From Acidimicrobiia bacterium (lineage in GTDB: Bacteria; Actinomycetota; Acidimicrobiia; Spongiisociales; ZC4RG35), in assembly GCA_965203555.1 (NCBI GenBank), contig CBDBCY010000004.1:192001-256000 (forward strand): a DNA stretch of 64,000 nucleotides, read 5' to 3'. The notes beneath the pieces are model-generated. The model worked only from the letters and a program-made list of their open reading frames with translations, was not told where the DNA came from and ran no database searches. Shown in pieces: positions 50,946-63,524 of this stretch. Both the position numbers and the translations under genes were made by a program. Positions within the stretch are counted from its first letter, which is position 1; each line of letters starts with the position of its first letter.

Positions 50946-53774
50946 ATGAACTCTCGTGAGCCGGTCTCTGTGGAGAGTTCTGGGTTGTACCGTTTCTTCA
51001 CAAGGGGACATGTTCGCGTCTCTCTAGTTGATGGACGACTTCGCCTGGAGAGGCAGGCGGGACGTGGGGCGGAGGAGTTAGGCGTCCGAGCGATCCACGA
51101 CATAACGGTTCGTCGTTCCTTGTTCCGAACGCGGTTGACAATCCACAGGTCAGATAACACCCGGTGCTCGATAGGTGGACTTGACCAGCAGGCCGCTGCC
51201 GGATTCCGCGTTGCTGTCCTGGAGACCGCCGGGCGGTATGCCTCCGAACTGGGTCCGCGTCTGGAGAAACTCGGAAGGTACCTGGACTTGGTCTGGGCTG
51301 GCGGCACCTATTTCAGGCATTCGGAGTCCCGCAAGTTTCATGAGGATCTGGTGTCGGCGGTCCACCAATCCGGCGGGCTGGTGCGGAACCGCCTCGGGCG
51401 GGGAGCGAGAGCTGCGTTTGTTCGGCTTGCCCCGCTCGAGTCCGCCCAGCGGTTCGAAGCGGAGCGGGCAAAGGCGAACAGGCATTTCATTGAGGTGACC
51501 ATCCCCTGGGTGAAAGAGGTATCCCGTTCGGTTCTCTCTCATCCGCTCACAGACGAGCAAGCAGAGGCGATCGCCACCGGCGAGGATGTAACCCTCGTGT
51601 TAGCTGGTGCGGGAACAGGCAAGACCGCGACCATCGTGGGCAAGGTCGCCCATCTGGTTCGTAACGAGGGGGTAGATCCGGATCAGGTCTTGGTGCTGGC
51701 CTACAACCGCAGGGCCGCCGAGGAAATCCGTGAACGTCTTCCCTGGGACCTCTCTGGGGCGCAGGTTTCAACTTTCCACGCCTTCGGCCGAAGCATCATC
51801 GCCAAGTCCGGGCGAGCCCCTTCGGTATCGAAACTTGCCGGAGACCGACGTGCTTTCACCAGGGAGATTGAGACCATTCTCCAAGAGATCTTGACCGATC
51901 CCGGGCAGCCGGCTGATGTGACCAACTTCCTTCTTTACCACCATCGGCCCTATCGTTCGGCCTTCGACTTCAAGACGGTCGCCGTATACGAGGAGTGGGT
52001 GCGCACGGTCGAGTTGCGAACGTTGAACGGCGAGTTGGTCAAGAGCTTCGAGGAACTCGTCATTGCCAACTTTCTGGCCGAGCATGGCATCCGGTATGAG
52101 TACGAACATGATTACCCGGTTGACACAGCAACCGGGTCGCACCGGCAGTACCAGCCTGACTTCTATCTCCCGGACCACCGTATCTACATAGAGCATTTCG
52201 CTCTCAACGAACAGATGAGGCCCCCGGGTCACTGGAAGGGTTACGCGGAAGGCGTCATTTGGAAGAGGAGTATCCACCAACAATATGGGACCACACTGGT
52301 GGAGACGTACAGCTGGCAGTACCGCAAGGGTGTGCTGCTGAATGGCCTACGGGGAGAACTCGAAGATAGAGGCGTCAGGCTGCACCCTATCCCGCGCCAG
52401 AGGCTACTCGGGGAACTGGTCAGACAGCTGGTTTCGTGGCTCTCTCAACTACTGTCCACATTCCTGAACCACGTCAAGACCAGCGGTCTGACATCGGACC
52501 AATTGCGGAAGCGTGCCCGTCAACGCCAAGATCATCTACGCTGCCGAAGCTTCCTGGGCCTCTTCGACGTGGTAAGTGAACGCTACGAGCGGCTGCTTGC
52601 AGATGAGCAGGCCGTGGATTTCCACGACCTAATCAATCGCGCGGTGATCCAGCTGCGACAAGGATTAGAAACCCCCGGGTTCCGCCATGTCTTGGTCGAC
52701 GAGTTCCAGGACATCTCCAGAGGCCGGATGGCGCTCCTCCAGGCACTCGCACAGTTCAATGTGGCATGGTTCCTCGTCGGTGACGACTGGCAATCCATCT
52801 ACCGCTTCGCCGGTAGCGATGTGGGTCTCGTGCGTAACTGCCGCACCTACCTCGGTCACACCAAGGAACAGACCCTAAGCCAGACCTTCCGATTCGGGCA
52901 CCGTATCCTCGGCCCGTCGACCGCGTTTGTGCAGCGCAACCCGGAACAGACGCAAAGGCCACTGCGTTCAAGCAGGCGCGGAGGCGACATTGGGATCAGC
53001 GTCGTAGTCGAGGCAGACTCTTCCCGCGGGGTCCAACGCGCCCTTGAGCACATCGAGACGCTCGGAGGAGGTGAACGCCGGACAGTGCTTGTCCTCGGCC
53101 GTTATGGCTTCAGCCGGGAGGTCCTCCCGCCGCTCCGACCATACCGGTCTCTGAAGGTGCGGTTCAGTACTGTGCACAGCGCAAAAGGGGAAGAGGCCGA
53201 CTACGTGGTGGTGGTGGACCTGAAGGATGACCGGATGGGATTCCCGTGCCGTCTCGAGGACGACCCGTTGCTGGACTTGGTGCTGCCCCCTCTGCACGGA
53301 GAGGCATTCCCGTTCGCCGAGGAGCGGCGTCTCTTCTATGTAGCCATGACGCGGGCGCGTTTCGGAACCTATCTGATCACGGATCCTGTACGACCGTCGA
53401 CGTTCGTCACGGAGTTGCTCCGCGAGTCCGAAGACCTATCACAACTCGGGCATCTCGCCCCGAATTGTGCACGTTGCCGCAGCGGCCGTCTGATCCCGTC
53501 CCAAACCGGTAGGAACCTGCGCTGCGCGAACCATCCAACCTGCGACTACCTGGCGCCCCGGTGCAACAGTTGCAACACCGGCTACTCGTTGGTTATGGGG
53601 AAGTCTGGAAGGCCCAAATGCAGCAATACGTCCTGCGGTCACCGTCCGAGGGCCTGCCCACAGTGCAGGATTGGCGTATTGGTGGAGAAGAAGGGCAGAT
53701 ACGGACGCTTCCGAGGATGCTCCAGATACTGGGCCGAACCGTCCTGCAAGCACACGGAGAAAATCGCTGGCTGA
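50946..53774 (+). CDS. helD: DNA helicase IV (UvrD family) with C-terminal zinc ribbons
   Basis: LAGAGTGKT, LAYN, TFHAFG, YQPDFYL..IYIEHF insert, LVDEFQD, VGDDWQSIYRF, STVHSAKG, EERRLFYVAMTRAR; Cys-rich C-terminus. Confidence 0.85.
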   Translation: MNSREPVSVESSGLYRFFTRGHVRVSLVDGRLRLERQAGRGAEELGVRAIHDITVRRSLFRTRLTIHRSDNTRCSIGGLDQQAAAGFRVAVLETAGRYASELGPRLEKLGRYLDLVWAGGTYFRHSESRKFHEDLVSAVHQSGGLVRNRLGRGARAAFVRLAPLESAQRFEAERAKANRHFIEVTIPWVKEVSRSVLSHPLTDEQAEAIATGEDVTLVLAGAGTGKTATIVGKVAHLVRNEGVDPDQVLVLAYNRRAAEEIRERLPWDLSGAQVSTFHAFGRSIIAKSGRAPSVSKLAGDRRAFTREIETILQEILTDPGQPADVTNFLLYHHRPYRSAFDFKTVAVYEEWVRTVELRTLNGELVKSFEELVIANFLAEHGIRYEYEHDYPVDTATGSHRQYQPDFYLPDHRIYIEHFALNEQMRPPGHWKGYAEGVIWKRSIHQQYGTTLVETYSWQYRKGVLLNGLRGELEDRGVRLHPIPRQRLLGELVRQLVSWLSQLLSTFLNHVKTSGLTSDQLRKRARQRQDHLRCRSFLGLFDVVSERYERLLADEQAVDFHDLINRAVIQLRQGLETPGFRHVLVDEFQDISRGRMALLQALAQFNVAWFLVGDDWQSIYRFAGSDVGLVRNCRTYLGHTKEQTLSQTFRFGHRILGPSTAFVQRNPEQTQRPLRSSRRGGDIGISVVVEADSSRGVQRALEHIETLGGGERRTVLVLGRYGFSREVLPPLRPYRSLKVRFSTVHSAKGEEADYVVVVDLKDDRMGFPCRLEDDPLLDLVLPPLHGEAFPFAEERRLFYVAMTRARFGTYLITDPVRPSTFVTELLRESEDLSQLGHLAPNCARCRSGRLIPSQTGRNLRCANHPTCDYLAPRCNSCNTGYSLVMGKSGRPKCSNTSCGHRPRACPQCRIGVLVEKKGRYGRFRGCSRYWAEPSCKHTEKIAG

Positions 53775-54248: not shown

Positions 54249-56057
54249 CTAATTTGGTTCTGTGATAAGCAACTCTTCTATTGCATTGTAGAAGGTGCGC
54301 TGCCGCTCCAGAGTGAAGTCTTCAAAGTCACTTATCCCGAACGGTGTACGGAGCAAAATCTCTAAAGCCGTCTCGGTGATAAAGTGCGACGCAAGGGTCG
54401 CGCGAACCGTTTCTTCGCCGTTGTTCTGGATGAGTTCCGGCAAGTATTCGTTTGGCAGTCGATCGCCGATGACGTGCCGGTTTGTGTTGGCGGTCAAAGG
54501 TGTGCGATTAAGAATCGAGTCAATCTTGACACCGAGCCCTTCTGTCCTTCCCCACCTCTGAGGCACGATGTGGTGGTCATCAAGCACTCCATGTTGGGGG
54601 ACAGCTCCAGTAATCCAATCCTTGGCTCCTCTTATAACGAGAAGATTGAAAAGCCCGTTATAGATAGATGTCCCTCGTCTTGTCTCTCGATGAAGCTCCA
54701 GTTCGCGGAAATCTCGCGTAAACTCAGAAATCAGGGCCGGTTCCGCCTCGTCACTTTCGAACCACTGACAAAGATCTCCGTAATCACGGGCTGCTGTGGA
54801 TTCAACTGCGCCTGAGTAGCGACGTGTGAAAACACTTGCCCAATACCAAAGTCTGATCTTTTTTTGTGCGTCAAGGTGACGATAAGGATCATTCTGGGAC
54901 GCTGCAGTCTGCAAAGCAGAAAAGGCAGGGACAATAGAGACATACGGAAGGTATCTTGAAAGAGTTGCTCCGAATTCCTGTGGATGCTGAAGCAACTTCA
55001 GACTACTCTCAATTGACTCCACTGCGGTATCCCAAAGCTGACTGAATTCATCAACATCACTTACCAGGATGATAGTTTTAAGAGTGCCGTCGGGCTCGCG
55101 CACCTTCTTCTTATGCCCTGGTAGTAAATAGTAAAGGTAATGCGGGGAGCAGTATTGTTGTCGAAGTATCGACATAACTTGTAGCACGTACACATTCATG
55201 CGTCCTGTCTCAACAAAATCAAGACGCTCCTTAGCGGCTCGCCACATATGCTTAAGTTGGAGACCTTTTGGTTTGAGCATGGCGTTCATTAAATCAAATA
55301 CATCCAGCCTAACACCTTTACTGTTGACTTGAGTAAAAATGTCGCATACCTTCGAAAGCTCTAGATCTTGGTCAAGCTCAATGTATGATACTTGATATTG
55401 TTGCTGAAGGTCGTGGAGGTAGATCCCGAATTGTTTGGCATCTTTGGCTCGTAGCTGTGCACGAGTTGCTAGATCTAGATCGCCACTTGCGTTCGCATCT
55501 TTGGCCTCTTTAGACCAATACGCCTCGTATTCCTGTACCCAGTTGGGCAAATCCCAGCCCTCTGCTCCGAAAATCCAGAGAGGAAATATGTGTTCTCTAA
55601 ACTGTTGTTGGCGATCCTTCATGAGCCTTGCAGTACCTCGCGTCCAGCCGTACGAGAAGGCTTCATCATAGTCCTCACTCATAAACCGGTCCACATGAAC
55701 ATAGTAGTAATAGCGATTGCGCCGATTAGGCAGATGTAGGTCTGGGGCAACGAAGGTATAGTAGATAGCAGTGAGGCGTTGCTGGCCGTCAAGGACAATG
55801 TGACGCGGATCTTCACTGTTGCTGGAGAATCCATAAACTGGTTCACATGCTAAAGCTCCAAAAGTCTCAGTCTTTCCCTTCCAGAGCAAGAGGCTGCCAA
55901 TAAAGTAGTCAAGGAAAATGGAACGCATGAGGTCGCGTATATCCCAGGGTTGCCATTCGAACTCCCTTTGAAAGTCCGGGATAACAAAGCTGCCTTCTCG
56001 AAGCTTCTTTATGAGGGGACCAAGACTAATGTGATTAGGTTTTTGTGCGTCTTTCAT
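54249..56057 (-). CDS. DUF262 + HNH (GmrSD-like) protein, lower GC
   Basis: IPDFQREFEW, LDGQQRLT, IFTQVNSKG, C-terminal DDHHIVP...N...N. Confidence 0.85.
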   Translation of the reverse strand: MKDAQKPNHISLGPLIKKLREGSFVIPDFQREFEWQPWDIRDLMRSIFLDYFIGSLLLWKGKTETFGALACEPVYGFSSNSEDPRHIVLDGQQRLTAIYYTFVAPDLHLPNRRNRYYYYVHVDRFMSEDYDEAFSYGWTRGTARLMKDRQQQFREHIFPLWIFGAEGWDLPNWVQEYEAYWSKEAKDANASGDLDLATRAQLRAKDAKQFGIYLHDLQQQYQVSYIELDQDLELSKVCDIFTQVNSKGVRLDVFDLMNAMLKPKGLQLKHMWRAAKERLDFVETGRMNVYVLQVMSILRQQYCSPHYLYYLLPGHKKKVREPDGTLKTIILVSDVDEFSQLWDTAVESIESSLKLLQHPQEFGATLSRYLPYVSIVPAFSALQTAASQNDPYRHLDAQKKIRLWYWASVFTRRYSGAVESTAARDYGDLCQWFESDEAEPALISEFTRDFRELELHRETRRGTSIYNGLFNLLVIRGAKDWITGAVPQHGVLDDHHIVPQRWGRTEGLGVKIDSILNRTPLTANTNRHVIGDRLPNEYLPELIQNNGEETVRATLASHFITETALEILLRTPFGISDFEDFTLERQRTFYNAIEELLITEPN

Positions 56058-56208: not shown

Positions 56209-57387
56209 TCACCACCCGTTCTGTGGAGACGGGACTTGGAAGTCGGAGCCGAGCGTCCGCCATATCATCGGGACGCCGGGGCGGTAGGCGAGGTGATGGC
56301 GGGTTGGGGCGTTGAGGATGGTGAGGTGGGCTGGGCCTTCGGGGGCTAGGCGACCGACGTCGGTTCGGCGTAAGGCGGCGGCGGCGCCGGTGGTTGCTGC
56401 TGCTATGGCTTCGTCGATGGTCATGTTCATATCGCGGACAGCCAGGGCGATGCAGAAGGAGATGGAGGTGGTGTAGCTCGAGCCGGGGTTGCAGTTGGAG
56501 GCGATGGCCACTTGGACTCCGGCGTCGATGGCGCGGCGGGCGTTGGGGTAGGGCTGGCGGGTGGAGAAGTCGGCGGCGGGGAGGAAGGTGGCTACGGTGT
56601 CGCTGGCGGCGAGCATCTCGATGTCTTGGTCGGAAAGGTAGGTGCAATGGTCTACGGAGGCACAGCCCATCTCCACGCCGAGGCGGACCCCGGGTCCGTA
56701 GTGGAGTTGGTTGGCGTGGAGGCGTAAACCCAAGCCTGCCCGCCTTCCGGCTTCGAGGACCGCTCTCGATTGATCGACGTCAAAGGCGCCGGTCTCGCAG
56801 AACACATCGATCCAGCGCACATGGGGGCGGACCGCATCGAGCATGGGCCCGCAGACCAACTCGGTGTAGTCGTCGGCGCGTCCCTGGTACTCGCTCGGTA
56901 CGACATGGGCGCCCAGGAAGGTGGTCTCGGTGGTCACTTCGGCTGCCAGGGAGGTGGTCAGGGCTTCGGATTCGACCGACAGTCCATAGCCCGACTTGAT
57001 CTCCACGGTTGTGGTGCCCGCCCGGTGTGCCTCGATGAGCCGCCGATCTAGTGCCGATCTCAGGGCCTTCCGGCTGGCGGCGCGGGTGGCTTCGGTGGTG
57101 ACCCGGATCCCTCCTCCGTCGTAGGGTTCGCCGGCCATGCGACGGGTGAACTCCTCGGCGCGGTCACCGGCGAAGACCAGGTGGGTGTGGGAGTCGACGA
57201 ATCCGGGTAGCACACACCGACCCCCGACGTCGAGACGTTCATCGGCCAACGCGCCGGTCGGGCAGATGGCGATTACCTGGTCGTCGTCGATCACTACGGA
57301 GGCGTTCTTGACGATCCCGAGCGCTCCCTCTCCCAGGGCGGGGATGTTGGTGATCAACTCGCCGATGTTGTCGACCACCAGGGTCAT
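56209..57387 (-). CDS. hutI: Imidazolonepropionase
   Basis: DSHTHLVFAGDRAEEF, EIKSGYGL, DVFCE, LHANQL, CNPGSS; ATGA overlap with hutF. Confidence 0.95.
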   Translation of the reverse strand: MTLVVDNIGELITNIPALGEGALGIVKNASVVIDDDQVIAICPTGALADERLDVGGRCVLPGFVDSHTHLVFAGDRAEEFTRRMAGEPYDGGGIRVTTEATRAASRKALRSALDRRLIEAHRAGTTTVEIKSGYGLSVESEALTTSLAAEVTTETTFLGAHVVPSEYQGRADDYTELVCGPMLDAVRPHVRWIDVFCETGAFDVDQSRAVLEAGRRAGLGLRLHANQLHYGPGVRLGVEMGCASVDHCTYLSDQDIEMLAASDTVATFLPAADFSTRQPYPNARRAIDAGVQVAIASNCNPGSSYTTSISFCIALAVRDMNMTIDEAIAAATTGAAAALRRTDVGRLAPEGPAHLTILNAPTRHHLAYRPGVPMIWRTLGSDFQVPSPQNGW

Positions 57388-58748
57388 GAGGTCATCAACT
57401 TGGGGATGATGGAGTCGAGTTCGGAGGCAACATTGATCGAGACGTGGGTCCCGTCGACCACGACCGGCGCTCCCCCCACCACCAGGTGACGGACATCGGC
57501 GCTCGATGCGGCGAAGATCGCCGAAGCGAGTGCATTGGCGGCGTCGGCGCCGGCGAGGCGCACCGAGTCGAGACCCAGAGTGGCGAAGTCGGCCAGGGAA
57601 CCCGGCGTGAGAGCGCCTCCCTCGGTCCATCCCAGCGACAGGTAGCCGTTTCGGGTGGCCATGTCGGCCAGGGCTTCGAGCGAGTGCACCCCCCGCTCGA
57701 GTTTGGTGACACGCTGGCCCATCTCGACTGCCCGGGTCTCCTCGAAGAGATCGACGATGGCATGGGAGTCCGAACCCACGCAGAGGCGGGCGCCGGCGGC
57801 CGCCAGTGCCTCGCTCGGGCCGATGCCGTCGGCCAGATCGCGTTCGGTTGTCGGGCAGAGACAGACGTTCGCTCCGGCCTCGCCGACCAGGGAGATGTCT
57901 TCTTCCGAGACATGCGTGGCGTGGACCAGCGTTGTCTGGGGACCCAGACCGCCCGCATCGGCCATCACCCCGATCGGGGTTCGCCCATGAACCTCGAGGC
58001 ACCCCCGGTTCTCGGCGGGCTGCTCGGAGATGTGGACGTGGAGCGGCGCGCGGTTTTCGGCAGCCCAACGCGCCGCGGTCCTGATAGACGTAGGGTCCAC
58101 GGCGCGCACCGAGTGGACAGCCGCGCTCACCGAGGTGTTCGAGCCCGAGATGGCGGTGGCCAGGTCGTCCACCCGGTCCGCCCATGCCTCGGCGGAGCCG
58201 TCGGAGAAGCGGGCTTGTTCCTCTGACAGGGGTGCGTACCCGGATGCCGTCCCGGGAGCAAAGCCACCGTGGAGGTAGAGGGTGTCGAGGAGGGTGAGGC
58301 GGATGCCGGCGTCGGTGGCCGCTGCCGCCAGTGAGGCTCCCATGGCGTTGGGGTCGTCGTAGGCGCCCCCGCCGGGACGGTGGTGGACGTAGTGGAATTC
58401 GCCCACCACGCCGATTCCGGCCATGGCCATCTCGGCGAAGACCGCCCGGGCAAGTCGGTAGTAGTTGTCGGGATCGAGGCCGGAAGAAACCCGGTACATG
58501 AGGTCCCGCCAGGTCCAGAACGTGCTCCGCTCGCCCTGGGTTCGGCTCCGGAGTGCCCGGTGGAAAGCATGGCTGTGCGCGTTGGCCAGCGCCGGAATCG
58601 TCAGTCCTCGCAGCTGTGTGGCGCCCGGGGGAGGAGCGCTGTGCCCGGAGGTCACCGCGCAGATGCCACCCTGATCGACTTCGATCACCACTCCCGGTGC
58701 AGCTTCCGGACCACCCAGCCAGGCCAGTTCGCACCAGTAGACGGTCAC
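57384..58748 (-). CDS. hutF: Formiminoglutamate deiminase
   Basis: NAHSHAFHRAL, FWTWRDLMY, GEFHYVHH, HSVRAV, HISEQ, CPTTERDLADG, GSDSH. Confidence 0.93.
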   Translation of the reverse strand: MTVYWCELAWLGGPEAAPGVVIEVDQGGICAVTSGHSAPPPGATQLRGLTIPALANAHSHAFHRALRSRTQGERSTFWTWRDLMYRVSSGLDPDNYYRLARAVFAEMAMAGIGVVGEFHYVHHRPGGGAYDDPNAMGASLAAAATDAGIRLTLLDTLYLHGGFAPGTASGYAPLSEEQARFSDGSAEAWADRVDDLATAISGSNTSVSAAVHSVRAVDPTSIRTAARWAAENRAPLHVHISEQPAENRGCLEVHGRTPIGVMADAGGLGPQTTLVHATHVSEEDISLVGEAGANVCLCPTTERDLADGIGPSEALAAAGARLCVGSDSHAIVDLFEETRAVEMGQRVTKLERGVHSLEALADMATRNGYLSLGWTEGGALTPGSLADFATLGLDSVRLAGADAANALASAIFAASSADVRHLVVGGAPVVVDGTHVSINVASELDSIIPKLMTS

Positions 58749-59314
58749 GATCCGACCTCTCGGACGAAGCGGGTGATGCGCTCGACGAAGGCGTCCTGGT
58801 GGTGGGTCCTGAACTGCTCCCAGGTCGCGAGCGTCCTGGGGTCGATCCGATCGACCACCAGGATGCCGTTGAGGTGGTCACACTCGTGCTGCCAGGTGCC
58901 GGCGGTGAGTCCCCGCACCACCCGTTGGTGGTCGACGCCCTCGCGATCGGTGTATCGGACCGCAAGGTTGACCGAGCGGACCAGTTCGCCTCTCAACGGC
59001 ACCGACAGGCATCCCTCGTTGATGACCACCTTCTCGTCGTCCATGACTTCGAGTTCCGGATTGATGGCCACCGTCAGGGGCACGGGGGGCTTGTAGGGGT
59101 AGCGAGGGTTGTCCTTCACCTCGATGGTGAGGACCCGGTCGGTCTCTCCTATCTGGTTGGCGGCTATGCCCGCCCCGTTGGCGTGGCGCATGGTGTCGAT
59201 GAGATCGTCGATGAGGCACTGGATTCGCGGGCTGGAGATGTCCGAACGCGGCACCGGCGTGGTCCTGGTCCGCAAGGTGGGATGGCCGATGGGGAGAATG
59301 GGGCGGACGGTCAT
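58745..59314 (-). CDS. def: Peptide deformylase-family protein inside the hut operon
   Basis: GAGIAANQ, EGCLSV, QHECDH motifs; GTGA overlap with the hutF start. Confidence 0.9.
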   Translation of the reverse strand: MTVRPILPIGHPTLRTRTTPVPRSDISSPRIQCLIDDLIDTMRHANGAGIAANQIGETDRVLTIEVKDNPRYPYKPPVPLTVAINPELEVMDDEKVVINEGCLSVPLRGELVRSVNLAVRYTDREGVDHQRVVRGLTAGTWQHECDHLNGILVVDRIDPRTLATWEQFRTHHQDAFVERITRFVREVGS

Positions 59315-59447: not shown

Positions 59448-61139
59448 CTATCGCCGGGTCTTCTCCGCCATGGGTACGTGCACTCCCCGGTCGGCGGCGA
59501 CCCGGACGGCCTCGTCGTAGCCGGCGTCGACGTGGCGCATCACCCCGGTGGCCGGGTCGTTCAGAAGGACCCGCTCCAGCTTGGCGGCCGCCAGGTCGGT
59601 GCCGTCGGCGAGGCACACCTGGCCGGCGTGGATCGACCGGCCGATGCCGACGCCGCCGCCGTGGTGGATGCTCACCCAGGTGGCGCCCGAAGACGCATTG
59701 ACCAGGGCGTTGAGCAGTGGCCAGTCGGCGATGGCGTCGCTGCCGTCCGCCATGTCCTCGGTCTCCCGGTAGGGCGAAGCAACCGAGCCGGAGTCGAGAT
59801 GGTCGCGGCCGATGACGATGGGAGCGGAGATCTCCCCGGATCTGACCATCTCGTTGAAGCGAAGCCCCAGGCGATGGCGCTCGCCGTAACCGACCCAGCA
59901 GATCCGGGCCGGGAGACCCTGGAAGGCGACCCGTTCGCCGGCCAGGTTAATCCAGCGGGCAAGAGCCTCGTTCTCGGGGAACTCCTCGAGCACGGCCCGA
60001 TCGGTGGCGGCGATGTCCGCCGGGTCGCCGGACAGGGCCACCCAGCGAAAAGGCCCCTTGCCCTCGCAGAACAGCGGACGGATGTAGGCGGGTAGGAACC
60101 CGGGATAGTCGAAGGCGCGGTCGTATCCTCCCAGTGCGGCCTCGGCCCGGAGGCTGTTGCCGTAGTCGAACACCTCGGCGCCGGCGTCGAGGAACCCGAC
60201 CATAGCCTCCACATGGGTGGCCATGGCGTGGCGGGCCCGATCGATGTACTCGTCGGGCTTCTTGTCACGTATGTCATCGGCTTCCTCGAGGGAGAGATCG
60301 AGGGGGATATAGGTGAGCGGATCGTGCGCCGAGGTCTGATCGGTGACGATGTCGGCCGAGACCCCGTCGGCCAGGAGGCGCGGCAGCAGGTCGGCGGCGT
60401 TGCCGACCAGTCCCACCGAGAGGGCCCTCCGGGCGGAGACCGCTTCCCGGCAGCGACGGAGTGCGTCGTCGTAGTCGTCGGCCACCACGTCCAGGAACCG
60501 GGTCTCGACGCGGCGAGCCGCCCGGTGGGGGTCGACCTCGATGCAGAGTGCCACGCCGTCGTTCATGGTGATGGCCAGCGGTTGGGCGCCTCCCATGCCG
60601 CCCAGTCCGGCGGTGACGGTGAGGGTGCCTGCCAGAGACCCGTCGAAGCGCTTCCGGGCGATGGCGGCGAAACACTCGTATGTCCCCTGCAGGATGCCCT
60701 GGGTGCCGATGTATATCCACGAGCCGGCGGTCATCTGCCCGTACATGGTGAGACCGAGGTGCTCGAGGCGGCGGAACTCGTCCCAGGTGCCCCAGTCGGG
60801 GACCAGGTTGGAGTTGGCGATCAGGACCCTGGGCGCCCACTCATGGGTCCGGAGGACGCCGACCGGCTTGCCGGACTGCACCAGCATGGTCTCGTCGTCT
60901 TCGAGGGTGGTGAGTGTCCGGATCATGGCGTGGTAGGCGTCCCATGACCTGGCCGCCCGACCGGTCCCCCCGTAGACCACCAGGTCCGCGGGTCGCTCGG
61001 CGACCTCGGGATCGAGGTTGTTCTGGAGCATCCGGAAGGCGGCCTCCTGCGGCCACCCGCGGCAGGTCAACGACGTGCCCCTCGGGGAGCGGACGCCACC
61101 CGGCGGTGCGCCGGAACTGTGTTGGGCTATGGCGGTCAT
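59448..61139 (-). CDS. hutU: Urocanate hydratase
   Basis: [45 protein letters not shown]. Confidence 0.98.
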
Positions 61140-61239
61140 GGTGGCTTACCACATCAGCACGGTGGGTCGTTTACAGGTCCGGGCTGCTGGTTGCCATTAT
61201 ACCGATCGTGCATCTATCCTGTCATTTACTAGCAATACT

Positions 61240-61254
61240 TTTCATGCAGTGAAA
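61240..61254. promoter_or_regulatory. Candidate IclR-type operator TTTCA-N5-TGAAA
   Basis: Palindrome in the divergent hutU/regulator spacer, overlapping the probable regulator start. Confidence 0.45.
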
Positions 61255-62001
61255 TCACCGAACCTCAGAACAGATCGCACGGCTTCCGAGGGAACGCCAT
61301 CCAATGGCGAGTCCCCAGCGCCCCTCCACAAATCACGTTCGGCGGAGCGGGTGCTCGCCCTACTGGACACCGTCATCACCAACGGAGCGGTCACCCTTAC
61401 GGACGCGGCTGCCGAAGCCGACATGCCAACCAGCACCGCCCTGCGGCATCTGCGGCTTCTGACCAACCGGGGCTATCTCGTTCGGGACGACCGGGGTTGG
61501 TACTCGGTCGGACCCGCCTTCGTGCGTATCGCGCTGCTCTCTTTCCAATCGGGTCCCTACGCACAACTCATGACAGCGGCCCAGCCCGGCCTCGAGCGGT
61601 TGGTCGAGGTCACCGAAGAGTCTGCATATCTGGCCGTGCGAGATGGAGGCGAGGCGGTCTACATTGCCACGGTCGAGAGCCGGCGGGCCATCCGCCACGT
61701 CGGCTGGGTAGGCAAGTCGGTGCCGCTGCAGGGGACCGCGGTGGGTGAGGCTCTGCTAAGCGAAGCGCCGTCGCCCGGTGCTCGGTGCAAGGCGGTGCTC
61801 AACACCGGCGCCATCGAGCCCGATGTCACCGCCGTGGTGGCGCCCATCCACGGGTCGGCTGGCGTGATGGGGGCATTCTCGGTGCTGGGTCCGGCCGAGC
61901 GGATCGTCGGGGAGCGCTTGGAGATTGCAACGGAAGCGGTGGTGAACGTCGCTATGGCTACGTCGAATTCCCTCTGCAGGGCCGAGGCAGTACGGCCATG
62001 A
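61249..62001 (+). CDS. IclR-family transcriptional regulator of hut genes
   Basis: SAERVLALL, HTH (PTSTALRHLRLL..GYL), TEESAYL, TAVGEALL; ATGA overlap with hutH; start uncertain. Confidence 0.87.
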   Translation: MKSPNLRTDRTASEGTPSNGESPAPLHKSRSAERVLALLDTVITNGAVTLTDAAAEADMPTSTALRHLRLLTNRGYLVRDDRGWYSVGPAFVRIALLSFQSGPYAQLMTAAQPGLERLVEVTEESAYLAVRDGGEAVYIATVESRRAIRHVGWVGKSVPLQGTAVGEALLSEAPSPGARCKAVLNTGAIEPDVTAVVAPIHGSAGVMGAFSVLGPAERIVGERLEIATEAVVNVAMATSNSLCRAEAVRP

Positions 62002-63524
62002 GCGTGGTACTCGAAGGTCCCGGCGTAACCATCGCCGATGTTGTTGCGGTTGCGCGCCGTGGTGAGCGGGTTCATCTCAGCGATGCAGCCTTAGAGCGGA
62101 TGGCGGTTAGTCGCCGGATCGTCGAACGCCTGGCGGAGGGCGATCCCGTATACGGCGTCTCGACCGGATTCGGCGCCCTGGCTACCACGACGATTCCCCC
62201 CGATCGGCGGGAGACCCTCCAGCGTGCAATGATCCGCTCCCACGCAGCAGGGATGGGATCGGCTGTGGAGACGGAAATGGTTCGGGCCATGATGTTCCTG
62301 CGGGCGCGGACCCTGGCGCTGGGAGCTTCAGGCGCCCGACCGCTGGTCGCAGAGACGCTGGTGCGGATGATCAACGCCGGTGTTGTTCCCGTGGTCCCCG
62401 AGCACGGCTCTCTCGGCGCCAGCGGCGACCTGGCGCCTCTCGCCCATGTTGCCATGGTTCTGATCGGTGAGGGCGAGGTCCTTGCCGACGCAGGGGTATG
62501 CGAAGGCGGGGCGGCGATGGCTCGGGCGGGCGTCGAGCCGGTGGAACTGGTGGAGAAGGAGGGCCTGGCGCTCATCAACGGGACCGACGGCATCCTGGGC
62601 ATGCTCTGTCTGGCGGTCCATGACGCCTCTCATCTTCTCACCGTCGCCGACATCGTGGCGGCTCTCAGCGTCGAGGGTCTCCTCTGCACCGACCGGGCAT
62701 ACGCCGCCGACCTGCAGGCGCTCCGCCCGCATCCGGGCCAGGCGTTGAGCGCCGCCAATCTCCGCCGGATGCTTCGGGGATCGCCGATCGTGGCCAGCCA
62801 CCGAACCGACGATGTTCGAGTGCAGGACGCCTACTCGATACGGTGCACACCCCAGGTTCACGGCGCGGCGCGTGACACCCTGGGGTTCGTGACGAATGTG
62901 GCGAAACGGGAGTTGGCGTCGGCCATCGACAATCCGATGGTGCTTTCCGACGGCCGAATCGAGTCGTGCGGCAACTTTCACGGAGCGCCGGTGGCGATGG
63001 CGGCCGATTACCTGGCGATCGCCATGGCCGAGGTCGGGGCCATCGCCGAGCGTCGTGTGGACCGGTTACTCGACTACAACCGCTCCCAAGGTCTGCCTCC
63101 CTTCCTGGCCGCCGACCCCGGTGTCGACAGCGGCTTGATGATCGCCCAGTACACCGCGGCTGCGATGTGCGCCGAGAACCGCCGTCTGGCCGCTCCCGCA
63201 GTGGTCGATTCGTATCCCACCTCGGCCATGCAGGAGGACCATGTCTCGATGGGATGGAGCGCGGCCCGCAAACTTCGCCGGGTGATCGACAACCTCCGTC
63301 GCATCCTGGCCATCGAGTGGGTCACCGCCGCCCGGGCCGTGGAACTGCGCGCTCCCCTGATGCCGAGTGACGGCACCGCAGCGGCCGTGGACTTGTTACG
63401 GACGCGGGTTCGGGGGCATGGTCCCGACCGGCCCCTGGCGCCCGAGTTGTCGGCGGCCGAGCAACTGCTCGGAGAGGAGTCGCTGGTGAGGGCGGTCGAG
63501 ATGGTGACGGGCCCCCTCGACTGA
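61998..63524 (+). CDS. hutH: Histidine ammonia-lyase
   Basis: VYGVSTGFG, GSLGASGDLAPLAH (MIO-forming ASG), KEGLALINGT, VQDAYSIRC, GNFHG, QEDHVSMG. Confidence 0.98.
   Translation: MSVVLEGPGVTIADVVAVARRGERVHLSDAALERMAVSRRIVERLAEGDPVYGVSTGFGALATTTIPPDRRETLQRAMIRSHAAGMGSAVETEMVRAMMFLRARTLALGASGARPLVAETLVRMINAGVVPVVPEHGSLGASGDLAPLAHVAMVLIGEGEVLADAGVCEGGAAMARAGVEPVELVEKEGLALINGTDGILGMLCLAVHDASHLLTVADIVAALSVEGLLCTDRAYAADLQALRPHPGQALSAANLRRMLRGSPIVASHRTDDVRVQDAYSIRCTPQVHGAARDTLGFVTNVAKRELASAIDNPMVLSDGRIESCGNFHGAPVAMAADYLAIAMAEVGAIAERRVDRLLDYNRSQGLPPFLAADPGVDSGLMIAQYTAAAMCAENRRLAAPAVVDSYPTSAMQEDHVSMGWSAARKLRRVIDNLRRILAIEWVTAARAVELRAPLMPSDGTAAAVDLLRTRVRGHGPDRPLAPELSAAEQLLGEESLVRAVEMVTGPLD

Follow-up and report, generated by a model that had tools for sequence, protein, structure and literature searches.

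How does a bacterium that degrades histidine through the HutF route complete the last step of the pathway, when its genome seems to lack every enzyme known to catalyze it? This question is raised by a 64,000-nucleotide stretch of DNA from an Acidimicrobiia bacterium (GenBank assembly GCA_965203555.1, contig CBDBCY010000004.1), hereafter called the window, by which we mean the whole stretch, whose positions are the coordinates used below. At its right end, on the minus strand, the window carries the gene order hutU-PDF-hutF-hutI, in which PDF is a gene of the peptide deformylase (PDF) family. In this pathway HutH, HutU and HutI would yield N-formimino-L-glutamate, and HutF would deaminate it to N-formyl-L-glutamate (the HutF product in the established pathway, according to passages of PMC9002059). 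The 189-residue hut-linked PDF is, in our view, probably the N-formylglutamate deformylase that replaces HutG in this organism: a metallohydrolase of the PDF fold which would have departed from protein maturation to become the fifth enzyme of the HutF-type histidine pathway, hydrolyzing the formyl amide to formate and L-glutamate (the HutG reaction, Enzyme Commission number EC 3.5.1.68). A first-pass annotation of the same DNA had proposed such a repurposed PDF paralogue, and the proposal is now supported, on comparative grounds, by the conservation of the linkage, by fusions with HutF and HutU and by the alternation with an M20 hydrolase beside hutF.

The operon begins with hutU (59448-61139, minus strand), coding for a urocanate hydratase of 563 residues with three urocanase Pfam domains and 895.7 bits against TIGR01228 (cut-off 375). 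The PDF-family gene follows (58745-59314, minus strand), and its product has PF01327 as its sole Pfam match (135.6 bits, cut-off 22.8), with no match to PF05013 or to M20. The next gene is hutF (57384-58748, minus strand), which starts with GTG and encodes a formimidoylglutamate deiminase of 454 residues (580.3 bits against NF006681, cut-off 362; 454.7 against TIGR02022, cut-off 413), and hutI comes last (56209-57387, minus strand), starting with ATG and encoding a 392-residue imidazolonepropionase (TIGR01224, 347.1 bits, cut-off 298). Divergently from hutU are found an IclR-family regulator gene with an uncertain start codon (approximately 61249-62001, plus strand; PF09339 and PF01614) and hutH (61998-63524, plus strand), which specifies a histidine ammonia-lyase of 508 residues (TIGR01225, 656.4 bits, cut-off 539). 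The PDF stop and the hutF start share the four nucleotides GTGA at 58745-58748, as read directly from the sequence, and four-nucleotide overlaps (ATGA in both cases) also join the hutF stop to the hutI start and the IclR stop to the hutH start. A promoter-like site upstream of hutU (61196-61225, minus strand; ATGACA and TATAAT separated by 18 nucleotides, 11/12 positions) and a terminator-like hairpin downstream of hutI (55923-55938, minus strand) are consensus matches only, the hairpin being the sole terminator-like one on the minus strand between hutU and the next gene. Among public sequencing runs, a search listed no RNA data set containing the operon. The operon, its divergent IclR-hutH pair, the GTGA overlap and the lack of any hutG, arginase-fold enzyme or M20 gene in the cluster had all been described in the first-pass annotation, and profile matches, coordinates and the sequence itself agree with that description.

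The search for the missing step was extended to the complete assembly (3.42 Mb in 4 contigs, 95.23% complete, coded G000 in the comparisons below). Neither PF05013 (FGase, the HutG family) nor PF00491 (the arginase fold) has a match anywhere in this 95.23%-complete genome, and the best score in it against TIGR01879, the hydantoinase-type M20 model, is 23.4 bits, for a cut-off of 204. Eight M20 genes are present, all outside the window and none near hut genes. An M20 paralogue as the deformylase was considered and rejected, given that the NCBIfam types of these genes are ArgE/DapE, amidohydrolase (TIGR01891), dipeptidase-like and carboxypeptidase-like, and none is of the hydantoinase or allantoate-amidohydrolase type. 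Without an FGase, an arginase-fold enzyme or a hydantoinase-type M20, the HutF route of this genome is therefore left with no known enzyme for its last step. There are two PDF genes, the hut-linked one and a 168-residue def (G000:C4:96878-97318) lying between a priA-like gene and fmt, which is the separate housekeeping copy that the first-pass annotation expected to exist. The linkage to the translation apparatus (def-fmt) is thus present for the 168-residue copy and absent for the hut-linked one, which sits between hutU and hutF.

The position of the PDF gene among hut genes is conserved. In a scan of species-representative genomes, 399 relatives were detected, of which the closest 80 (65-90% identity) had their loci inspected. 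Among these best 80 of 399, hutU is upstream on the same strand in 80/80, hutF is downstream in 79 (the sole miss, L078, ends 54 nucleotides past the PDF) and hutI comes next in 75, the five misses being contig ends, with an IclR-family regulator beside hutH in most. Since hutU and hutF accompany the PDF in 80 and 79 of the 80 loci, chance placement in the operon is excluded. The related records are labelled Acidimicrobiia bacterium, and many come from sponge or marine samples. A separate sample of the class comprised 201 Acidimicrobiia genomes, one of them G000; matches of hutF type scoring 265 bits or more occur in 27, and 22 of these 27 have a PDF gene at most 3 kb from hutF on the same strand. 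A protein search of the same 201 genomes (E <= 1e-35, identity of at least 49%) returned 23 carriers, all hut-linked, namely the 22 with hutF and one genome (G094) whose locus reads hutH-hutU-PDF-hutI; canonical hutF was not found in G094, a 96%-complete assembly in which the contig with the locus ends 76 nucleotides after the last gene. The co-occurrence of the RYPYKP-bearing PDF with hutF, anticipated by the first-pass annotation, can be summarized as 22 genomes with both, 5 with hutF only, 1 with the (hut-linked) PDF only and 173 with neither, counts that we give without a P value for genomes that are related to each other. Additionally, a second PDF exists in 22/22 carrier genomes, and in four of the five genomes that have hutF but no hut-linked copy, only one PDF is present. 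Five gene orders (taken from tblastn) are seen among the carriers: hutU-PDF-hutF-hutI, hutU-hutF-PDF-hutI, hutU-hutF-hutI-PDF-hutH, hutH-hutF-hutI-hutU-PDF and hutF-PDF alone.

Some of the related loci have peculiarities of their own. In one set (L020:2772-4998, and also L022-L024, L026-L028, L044, L053 and L139) about 2.2 kb are inserted between hutU and the PDF gene, containing an MttB-family methyltransferase (PF06253, 638.6 bits) and a 259-residue frame without a Pfam match. One Acidimicrobiia family has a divergent second HutI-like amidohydrolase inside the hut cluster (L230:11309-12685 in G094, and also L099, L101, L136, L138 and L140), 33-39% identical to the HutI of the window and scoring 240 bits against TIGR01224, below the cut-off. 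The hutF gene is interrupted by an internal TAA in G082 (G082:C4:195519-196775), which has no hut PDF, and is divided between two reading frames in G038 (L133:6521-7691), where the PDF is kept; both are possible pseudogenes or assembly errors. In G186 (L094:7264-7893), hutU-hutF is followed by a 209-residue protein, with no PDF or M20 at the locus. This protein may be another filler of the same slot, or unrelated; it was considered as a further analogue, and its single weak match, to MDMPI_C (MDMPI/DinB-like; E 3e-4, below the cut-off), allows nothing to be said. Finally, one of the 80 related loci (L081) is labelled Verrucomicrobiales and has hut genes 66-74% identical to those of Acidimicrobiia, the label being probably a binning error in the source record.

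Outside the class, the slot beside hutF is mostly occupied by another protein. Among 301 sampled Actinomycetota genomes, hutF was detected (E <= 1e-70) in 62, of which 56 are outside Acidimicrobiia, and 55 of these 56 were examined (G312 was left out). At most 3 kb from hutF, a TIGR01879-type M20 hydrolase is found in 38 of the 55 and a PDF in 3 (G328, G444 and G401, from three different families), with both together in none. The slot is thus occupied by one or the other of two unrelated hydrolases. The PDFs of all three genomes carry the full hut-PDF signature described below, and two of the three have no TIGR01879-type gene at E <= 1e-30. FGase homologues exist in 10 of the 55 genomes, near hutF in none.

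Evidence of a different kind comes from gene fusions, found by a search among longer proteins followed by domain scans. PDF-HutF fusions are represented by P0153 (51 member sequences), P0165 (8 members, 6 contigs), P0170 (8 contigs) and others; the reverse order, HutF-PDF, occurs in P0157 and P0158; HutU-PDF fusions are P0123, P0124, P0127, P0132, P0135 and P0138; and P0145 is a triple PDF-HutF-HutI fusion. The hut-PDF signature is present in the fusion proteins too. Many of them are single metagenome predictions, in which a gene-calling artefact is possible; a PDF-HutF frame of 668 codons runs unbroken on a 91-kb metagenome contig, and the PDF and HutF parts are in frame in 3/3 metagenome loci that hold both. 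For the HutF fusions, cluster members or labels name eukaryotes (the protists Aureococcus anophagefferens, Stephanoeca diplocostata and Paraphysomonas). Fusions of PDF with Fmt have only 33-39% identity and group with the housekeeping PDFs. Recurrent joining of the PDF to HutF and HutU hints at a complex in which the final reactions of the pathway may take place, N-formylglutamate being passed on directly. A PhyH-type dioxygenase domain (PF05721) is also joined to a hut-type PDF in P0121, P0125, P0126 and P0130, all of them single metagenome predictions that may again be gene-calling artefacts.

In order to identify the residues that set this group apart, 102 hut-linked copies (48-90% identical to the one in the window) were set against 24 further PDFs encoded by the same genomes, and the def product of NC_000913 served as the E. 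coli Def reference. The catalytic machinery is fully conserved, and the three motifs that the first-pass annotation had called intact are indeed so: motif 1, GAGIAANQ (residues 47-54; 59153-59176, minus strand); motif 2, EGCLS (residues 100-104; 59003-59017, minus strand), with the metal ligand Cys102; and motif 3, QHECDH (residues 142-147; 58874-58891, minus strand), with the ligands His143 and His147 and the catalytic Glu144, motifs 2 and 3 being invariant in 102/102. Gly49, Gln54, Glu100, Gly101, Cys102, Leu103, Ser104, His143, Glu144 and His147 are all invariant in the 102 copies, mostly the same in the 24 others and the same in E. coli Def.

The surroundings of the active site are different. 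Position 48, in motif 1, is occupied by Ala (93 copies) or Ser (9) in the 102 hut-linked PDFs, by Val, Leu or Ile in 22 of the 24 others and by Ile44 in E. coli. At Gly139-Thr140 (58895-58900, minus strand), where E. coli has Ile128-Cys129 and the housekeeping copies have Arg followed by Val, Leu or Met, position 139 is Gly in 96/102 (Ala, Cys or Ser in the rest) and Arg in 23/24 others, and Thr140 is invariant, with Val, Leu or Met in 22/24 others. These are the substitutions (GAG for GIG and AGTWQHE for AICIQHE) that had been noticed in the first pass, and the alignment to E. coli Def reproduces them. In AtPDF1B, according to passages of PMC3101196, formyl-methionine is received by a hydrophobic S1' pocket whose shape is given by Phe58, Ile130 and Ile42 (second in motif 1 and equivalent to E. 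coli Ile44), and at the aligned positions the hut-linked PDF has Ala48 and Gly139-Thr140, so that this hydrophobic pocket is not retained, with the caveat that position 139 is not hydrophobic in all true PDFs, being Arg in the housekeeping PDFs of the class.

A further distinction is the enlarged CD-loop NPRYPYKP (residues 69-76; 59087-59110, minus strand), in which Arg71, Tyr72, Tyr74, Lys75 and Pro76 are invariant in 102/102. The loop is absent in E. coli Def and largely absent in the 24 other PDFs (a gap at Tyr72 in 24/24, and at Tyr74, Lys75 and Pro76 in 23). In the Leptospira PDF the CD-loop is likewise enlarged, and mobile, according to the same excerpt (PMC3101196), and ordinary PDFs of the Leptospira type have RYP(D/E)xP in place of RYPYKP. 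The basic NPRYPYKP loop that the first-pass annotation counted among the distinguishing features is thus present, N-x-R-Y-P being common to Leptospira-type PDFs and only Tyr74-Lys75 specific to the hut-linked group. Two other pairs are invariant in 102/102: Arg108-Gly109 (mostly Tyr or Phe followed by Trp, Val or Phe in the 24 others, and Arg-Ala in E. coli) and Thr164-Trp165 (mostly Ala followed by Leu in the others, and Ile-Arg in E. coli). Taken together, the features truly specific to hut-linked PDFs are Tyr74-Lys75, Gly139-Thr140 and Thr164-Trp165. Within the group, two subgroups differ at three co-varying positions (Arg134, Leu136 and Asn99 in operon-encoded copies, and Glu134, His136 and Ile99 in most HutF fusions). 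The counterpart of position 136 in E. coli is Leu125 (numbered Leu126 in the alignment), which we take to be an S1' residue, and we may speculate that the three positions represent two ways to place a positive or polar group in the pocket.

Structure prediction and phylogeny both place the hut-linked PDFs near those of Leptospira. An AlphaFold2 model of the hut-linked PDF (predicted local distance difference test, pLDDT, 96.3; predicted template modelling score, pTM, 0.92) was compared with known structures using Foldseek, and among the matches listed (ranks 1-50) all are PDFs, the best being 1sv2_B (E 4.3e-21, template modelling scores 0.87/0.95, root-mean-square deviation 1.0 A, 38% identity). 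By sequence, too, this PDF of Leptospira interrogans scores highest among the proteins of solved structure (117.8 bits). When 73 full-length rows were analysed with IQ-TREE, the sequences with the signature all belonged to a single clade of 43 rows, whose Shimodaira-Hasegawa-like approximate likelihood ratio (SH-aLRT) support is 93, below the 95 needed for a star. The clade is composed of 15 hut-linked sequences, 12 database representatives, 11 HutF fusions, 3 HutU fusions and 2 near-signature rows, and it is nested among Leptospira-type PDFs. Housekeeping PDFs (support 99) and those fused to Fmt (100) form clades outside it. In an earlier FastTree tree, most of the PDF domains from PDF-HutF fusions stood next to the housekeeping copies, at a node with a support of 0.0 to which we give no weight; in the IQ-TREE tree they group with the hut-linked clade. 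On balance, we lean towards the view that the hut-linked PDFs are a distinct family (Ala or Ser at 48, the R-Y-P-Y-K-P loop, Arg108-Gly109, Gly139-Thr140 and Thr164-Trp165), with a single origin from Leptospira-type PDFs, which would provide the true N-formylglutamate deformylase in most of the Acidimicrobiia that degrade histidine, in scattered other Actinomycetota and, fused to HutF, in several protist lineages.

Based on the conserved residues, a mechanism can be proposed for the deformylation. The metal would be held by Cys102, His143 and His147, with the formyl oxygen of N-formyl-L-glutamate placed on it; Glu144 would activate the water molecule, and Gln54 together with the Leu103 amide would stabilize the oxyanion of the intermediate, after which formate and glutamate would leave. 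The methionine S1' pocket is stripped of two key side chains (Ile to Ala48, and Ile-Cys to Gly139-Thr140), and the pocket so widened could take the gamma-carboxylate with the help of Thr140. The alpha-carboxylate, which replaces the peptide chain, would be taken by Lys75 and Tyr74 of the mobile CD-loop and by Arg108.

Other roles for the protein have to be weighed against this one. It could be a deformylase for free N-formyl amino acids or some other small N-formyl compound (N-formylmethionine, N-formylaspartate or a formylated by-product), with the hut linkage reflecting only part of its role. The rebuilt pocket would be compatible with such a broader function, in that it points to the loss of methionine-peptide specificity and not to what replaced it; moreover, the gene is accompanied by hutF and by no further hut gene over some 7 kb in three genomes (L133, L134 and L141), no canonical hutF was found in the 96%-complete G094, and some relatives are joined to the PhyH-type dioxygenase domain (P0121). 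Nevertheless, we consider this explanation unlikely, as the HutF product is N-formylglutamate itself (in the part of PMC9002059 already referred to), fusions of the PDF with HutF occur in either order, and the PDF lies beside hut genes in 23/23 carriers of the class sample. Less likely still, the protein may be a second peptide deformylase (Def2) of the ordinary kind that works on nascent proteins, placed in the operon by historical accident or for convenience of regulation. Its motifs are all intact, it passes the cut-offs of TIGR00079 (105.4 bits, cut-off 103.95) and NF001159 (131.5, cut-off 125), in both cases narrowly, its fold is closest to an active PDF (1sv2) and every naming source calls it a peptide deformylase; all of this would be expected of a Def2. 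Such an enzyme would hardly explain, however, a linkage that survives five gene orders and three kinds of fusion, a clade separate from the def-fmt copies, the replacement of the S1' residues, a distribution limited to 23/201 genomes (all hut-linked) or a HutF-fused form in sequences labelled as protists.

The two remaining alternatives keep the protein in the hut pathway with another task. If it acted on N-formimino-L-glutamate or on a HutF-bound intermediate, as a formiminoglutamase-like or accessory activity, the HutF fusions and the translational coupling would fit equally well (a two-activity complex), as would the G094 genome with its PDF and no canonical hutF found. We regard this as very improbable: the architecture of the PDF active site, every part of which is invariant, suits a formyl carbonyl bound to the metal; hutF, for which there would be no need beside a PDF that took off the formimino group, is kept next to it in 22/23 carriers; and the G094 locus ends 76 nucleotides after its last gene, so that hutF may simply be unassembled. 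A non-catalytic partner, scaffold or stabilizer of HutF or HutU is what fusions to both enzymes might suggest, and it is extremely unlikely, given that no variation is seen, among 102 copies at 48-90% identity, in the metal ligands, the catalytic Glu or the oxyanion residues, a pattern typical of an active enzyme.

Several observations weigh against the protein being an N-formylglutamate deformylase. A COG0624 (M20) protein was predicted from a similar context to be an alternative N-formylglutamate deformylase, and PMC3223725 (Table 3, case 20) reports no deformylase activity detected for the Streptomyces avermitilis protein; at this same step, then, either context misled or an assay failed once before. 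The hut PDF is absent in five hutF-bearing Acidimicrobiia (G082, G033, G142, G186 and G047), of which only G047 has an M20 gene at hutF, directly before it, leaving 4/27 hutF-bearing genomes of the class with neither PDF nor M20 at the locus; the hutF-like genes of G033 and G142 stand outside hut clusters and may not be histidine genes. Neither gene lies near hutF in 14 of the 55 other Actinomycetota, and in a metagenome sample 77/80 hutF-related loci have no PDF nearby, which makes the hut PDF a minority solution. The absence of hutG that the first-pass annotation wanted checked holds for this genome (no PF05013 match), and it is no rule of the group, since FGase-family homologues exist in 5/22 carriers (G055, 154.6 bits; G114, 84.7; G028, 82.8; G106, 68.5; G095, 33.4), none of them near hut genes and that of G055 adjoining a flavin amine oxidase. 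Regarding the protein itself, Ala48, Arg108-Gly109 and N-x-R-Y-P are also found in ordinary Leptospira-type PDFs, the reach of Lys75 and Tyr74 into the pocket is something that we only infer, and the narrow TIGR00079 and NF001159 passes mean that residual or dual PDF activity is possible.

The assignment of the hut-linked PDF to N-formylglutamate can also be viewed through its likeness to known systems. With the Leptospira interrogans PDF (1sv2, 1y6h and 1szz; Def, EC 3.5.1.88) it shares the fold, the three motifs, the metal ligands and the catalytic Glu, as well as a long CD-loop starting with N-x-R-Y-P and Arg-Gly after motif 2. It differs from that protein in having Gly139-Thr140 for Ile-Val, Ala48 for Val/Ile and Tyr74-Lys75 for Gly-Thr, and from Def in general in having no fmt beside it, in its constant association with hut genes, in a C-terminal helix with the conserved Thr164-Trp165 and in the proposed substrate, a free N-formyl amino acid and not a peptide. 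HutG of the Pseudomonas-type five-step pathway (EC 3.5.1.68, PF05013) has the same proposed reaction, the same place after HutF and is encoded with hutF, but bears no sequence or fold relationship to the PDF. The hut-linked M20 protein (TIGR01879 'hydantase' type, COG0624) occupies the same slot beside hutF, in the 38 of 55 genomes mentioned above and in G047, and never together with a PDF at the locus; its fold is unrelated, and since its predicted deformylase activity was not detected (PMC3223725, as cited above), the M20 protein does not settle what the slot does. Formiminoglutamase (HutG of the Bacillus/Klebsiella type, EC 3.5.3.8, PF00491) also ends a hut pathway at glutamate, but does so in one step, without HutF, and with an arginase fold. 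Naming sources all call the hut-linked proteins peptide deformylase (some fusions are named formimidoylglutamate deiminase), and a full-text literature search that left most subscription journals outside its coverage found no paper tying PDF to N-formylglutamate or to hut operons. The hut-linked PDF would thus combine in a new way a fold and a reaction that are each known, and the combination is well supported by comparative genomics.

Just downstream of hutI lies a 602-residue gene with a GmrSD restriction-endonuclease N-terminal domain (54249-56057, minus strand; PF03235, 111.5 bits). The G+C content of the surrounding stretch is 47-51%, compared with about 67% in the hut genes, and the gene has the appearance of a defence gene that was acquired. 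Adjoining this low-G+C stretch is a UvrD/REP-type helicase of 942 residues with a C-terminal topoisomerase-type zinc ribbon (50946-53774, plus strand; PF00580, PF13361 and PF01396).

If the hut-linked PDF is indeed an N-formylglutamate deformylase, it would fill the missing step of the HutF route in genomes without any of the known kinds of enzyme, and it would be the first enzyme of the PDF fold shown to act in small-molecule catabolism. It would also be a clear instance of non-orthologous displacement: an essential enzyme of protein maturation would have been duplicated and its specificity retuned to a derivative of a free amino acid. Enzymologists would have in it a natural experiment on how the S1' pocket of PDFs sets specificity. 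Annotation would have to be corrected accordingly, as the current naming inflates def counts and leaves hut pathways apparently incomplete in reconstructions of marine and sponge-associated Acidimicrobiia. Additionally, the role of the M20 protein found in the same slot in Streptomyces would be reopened.

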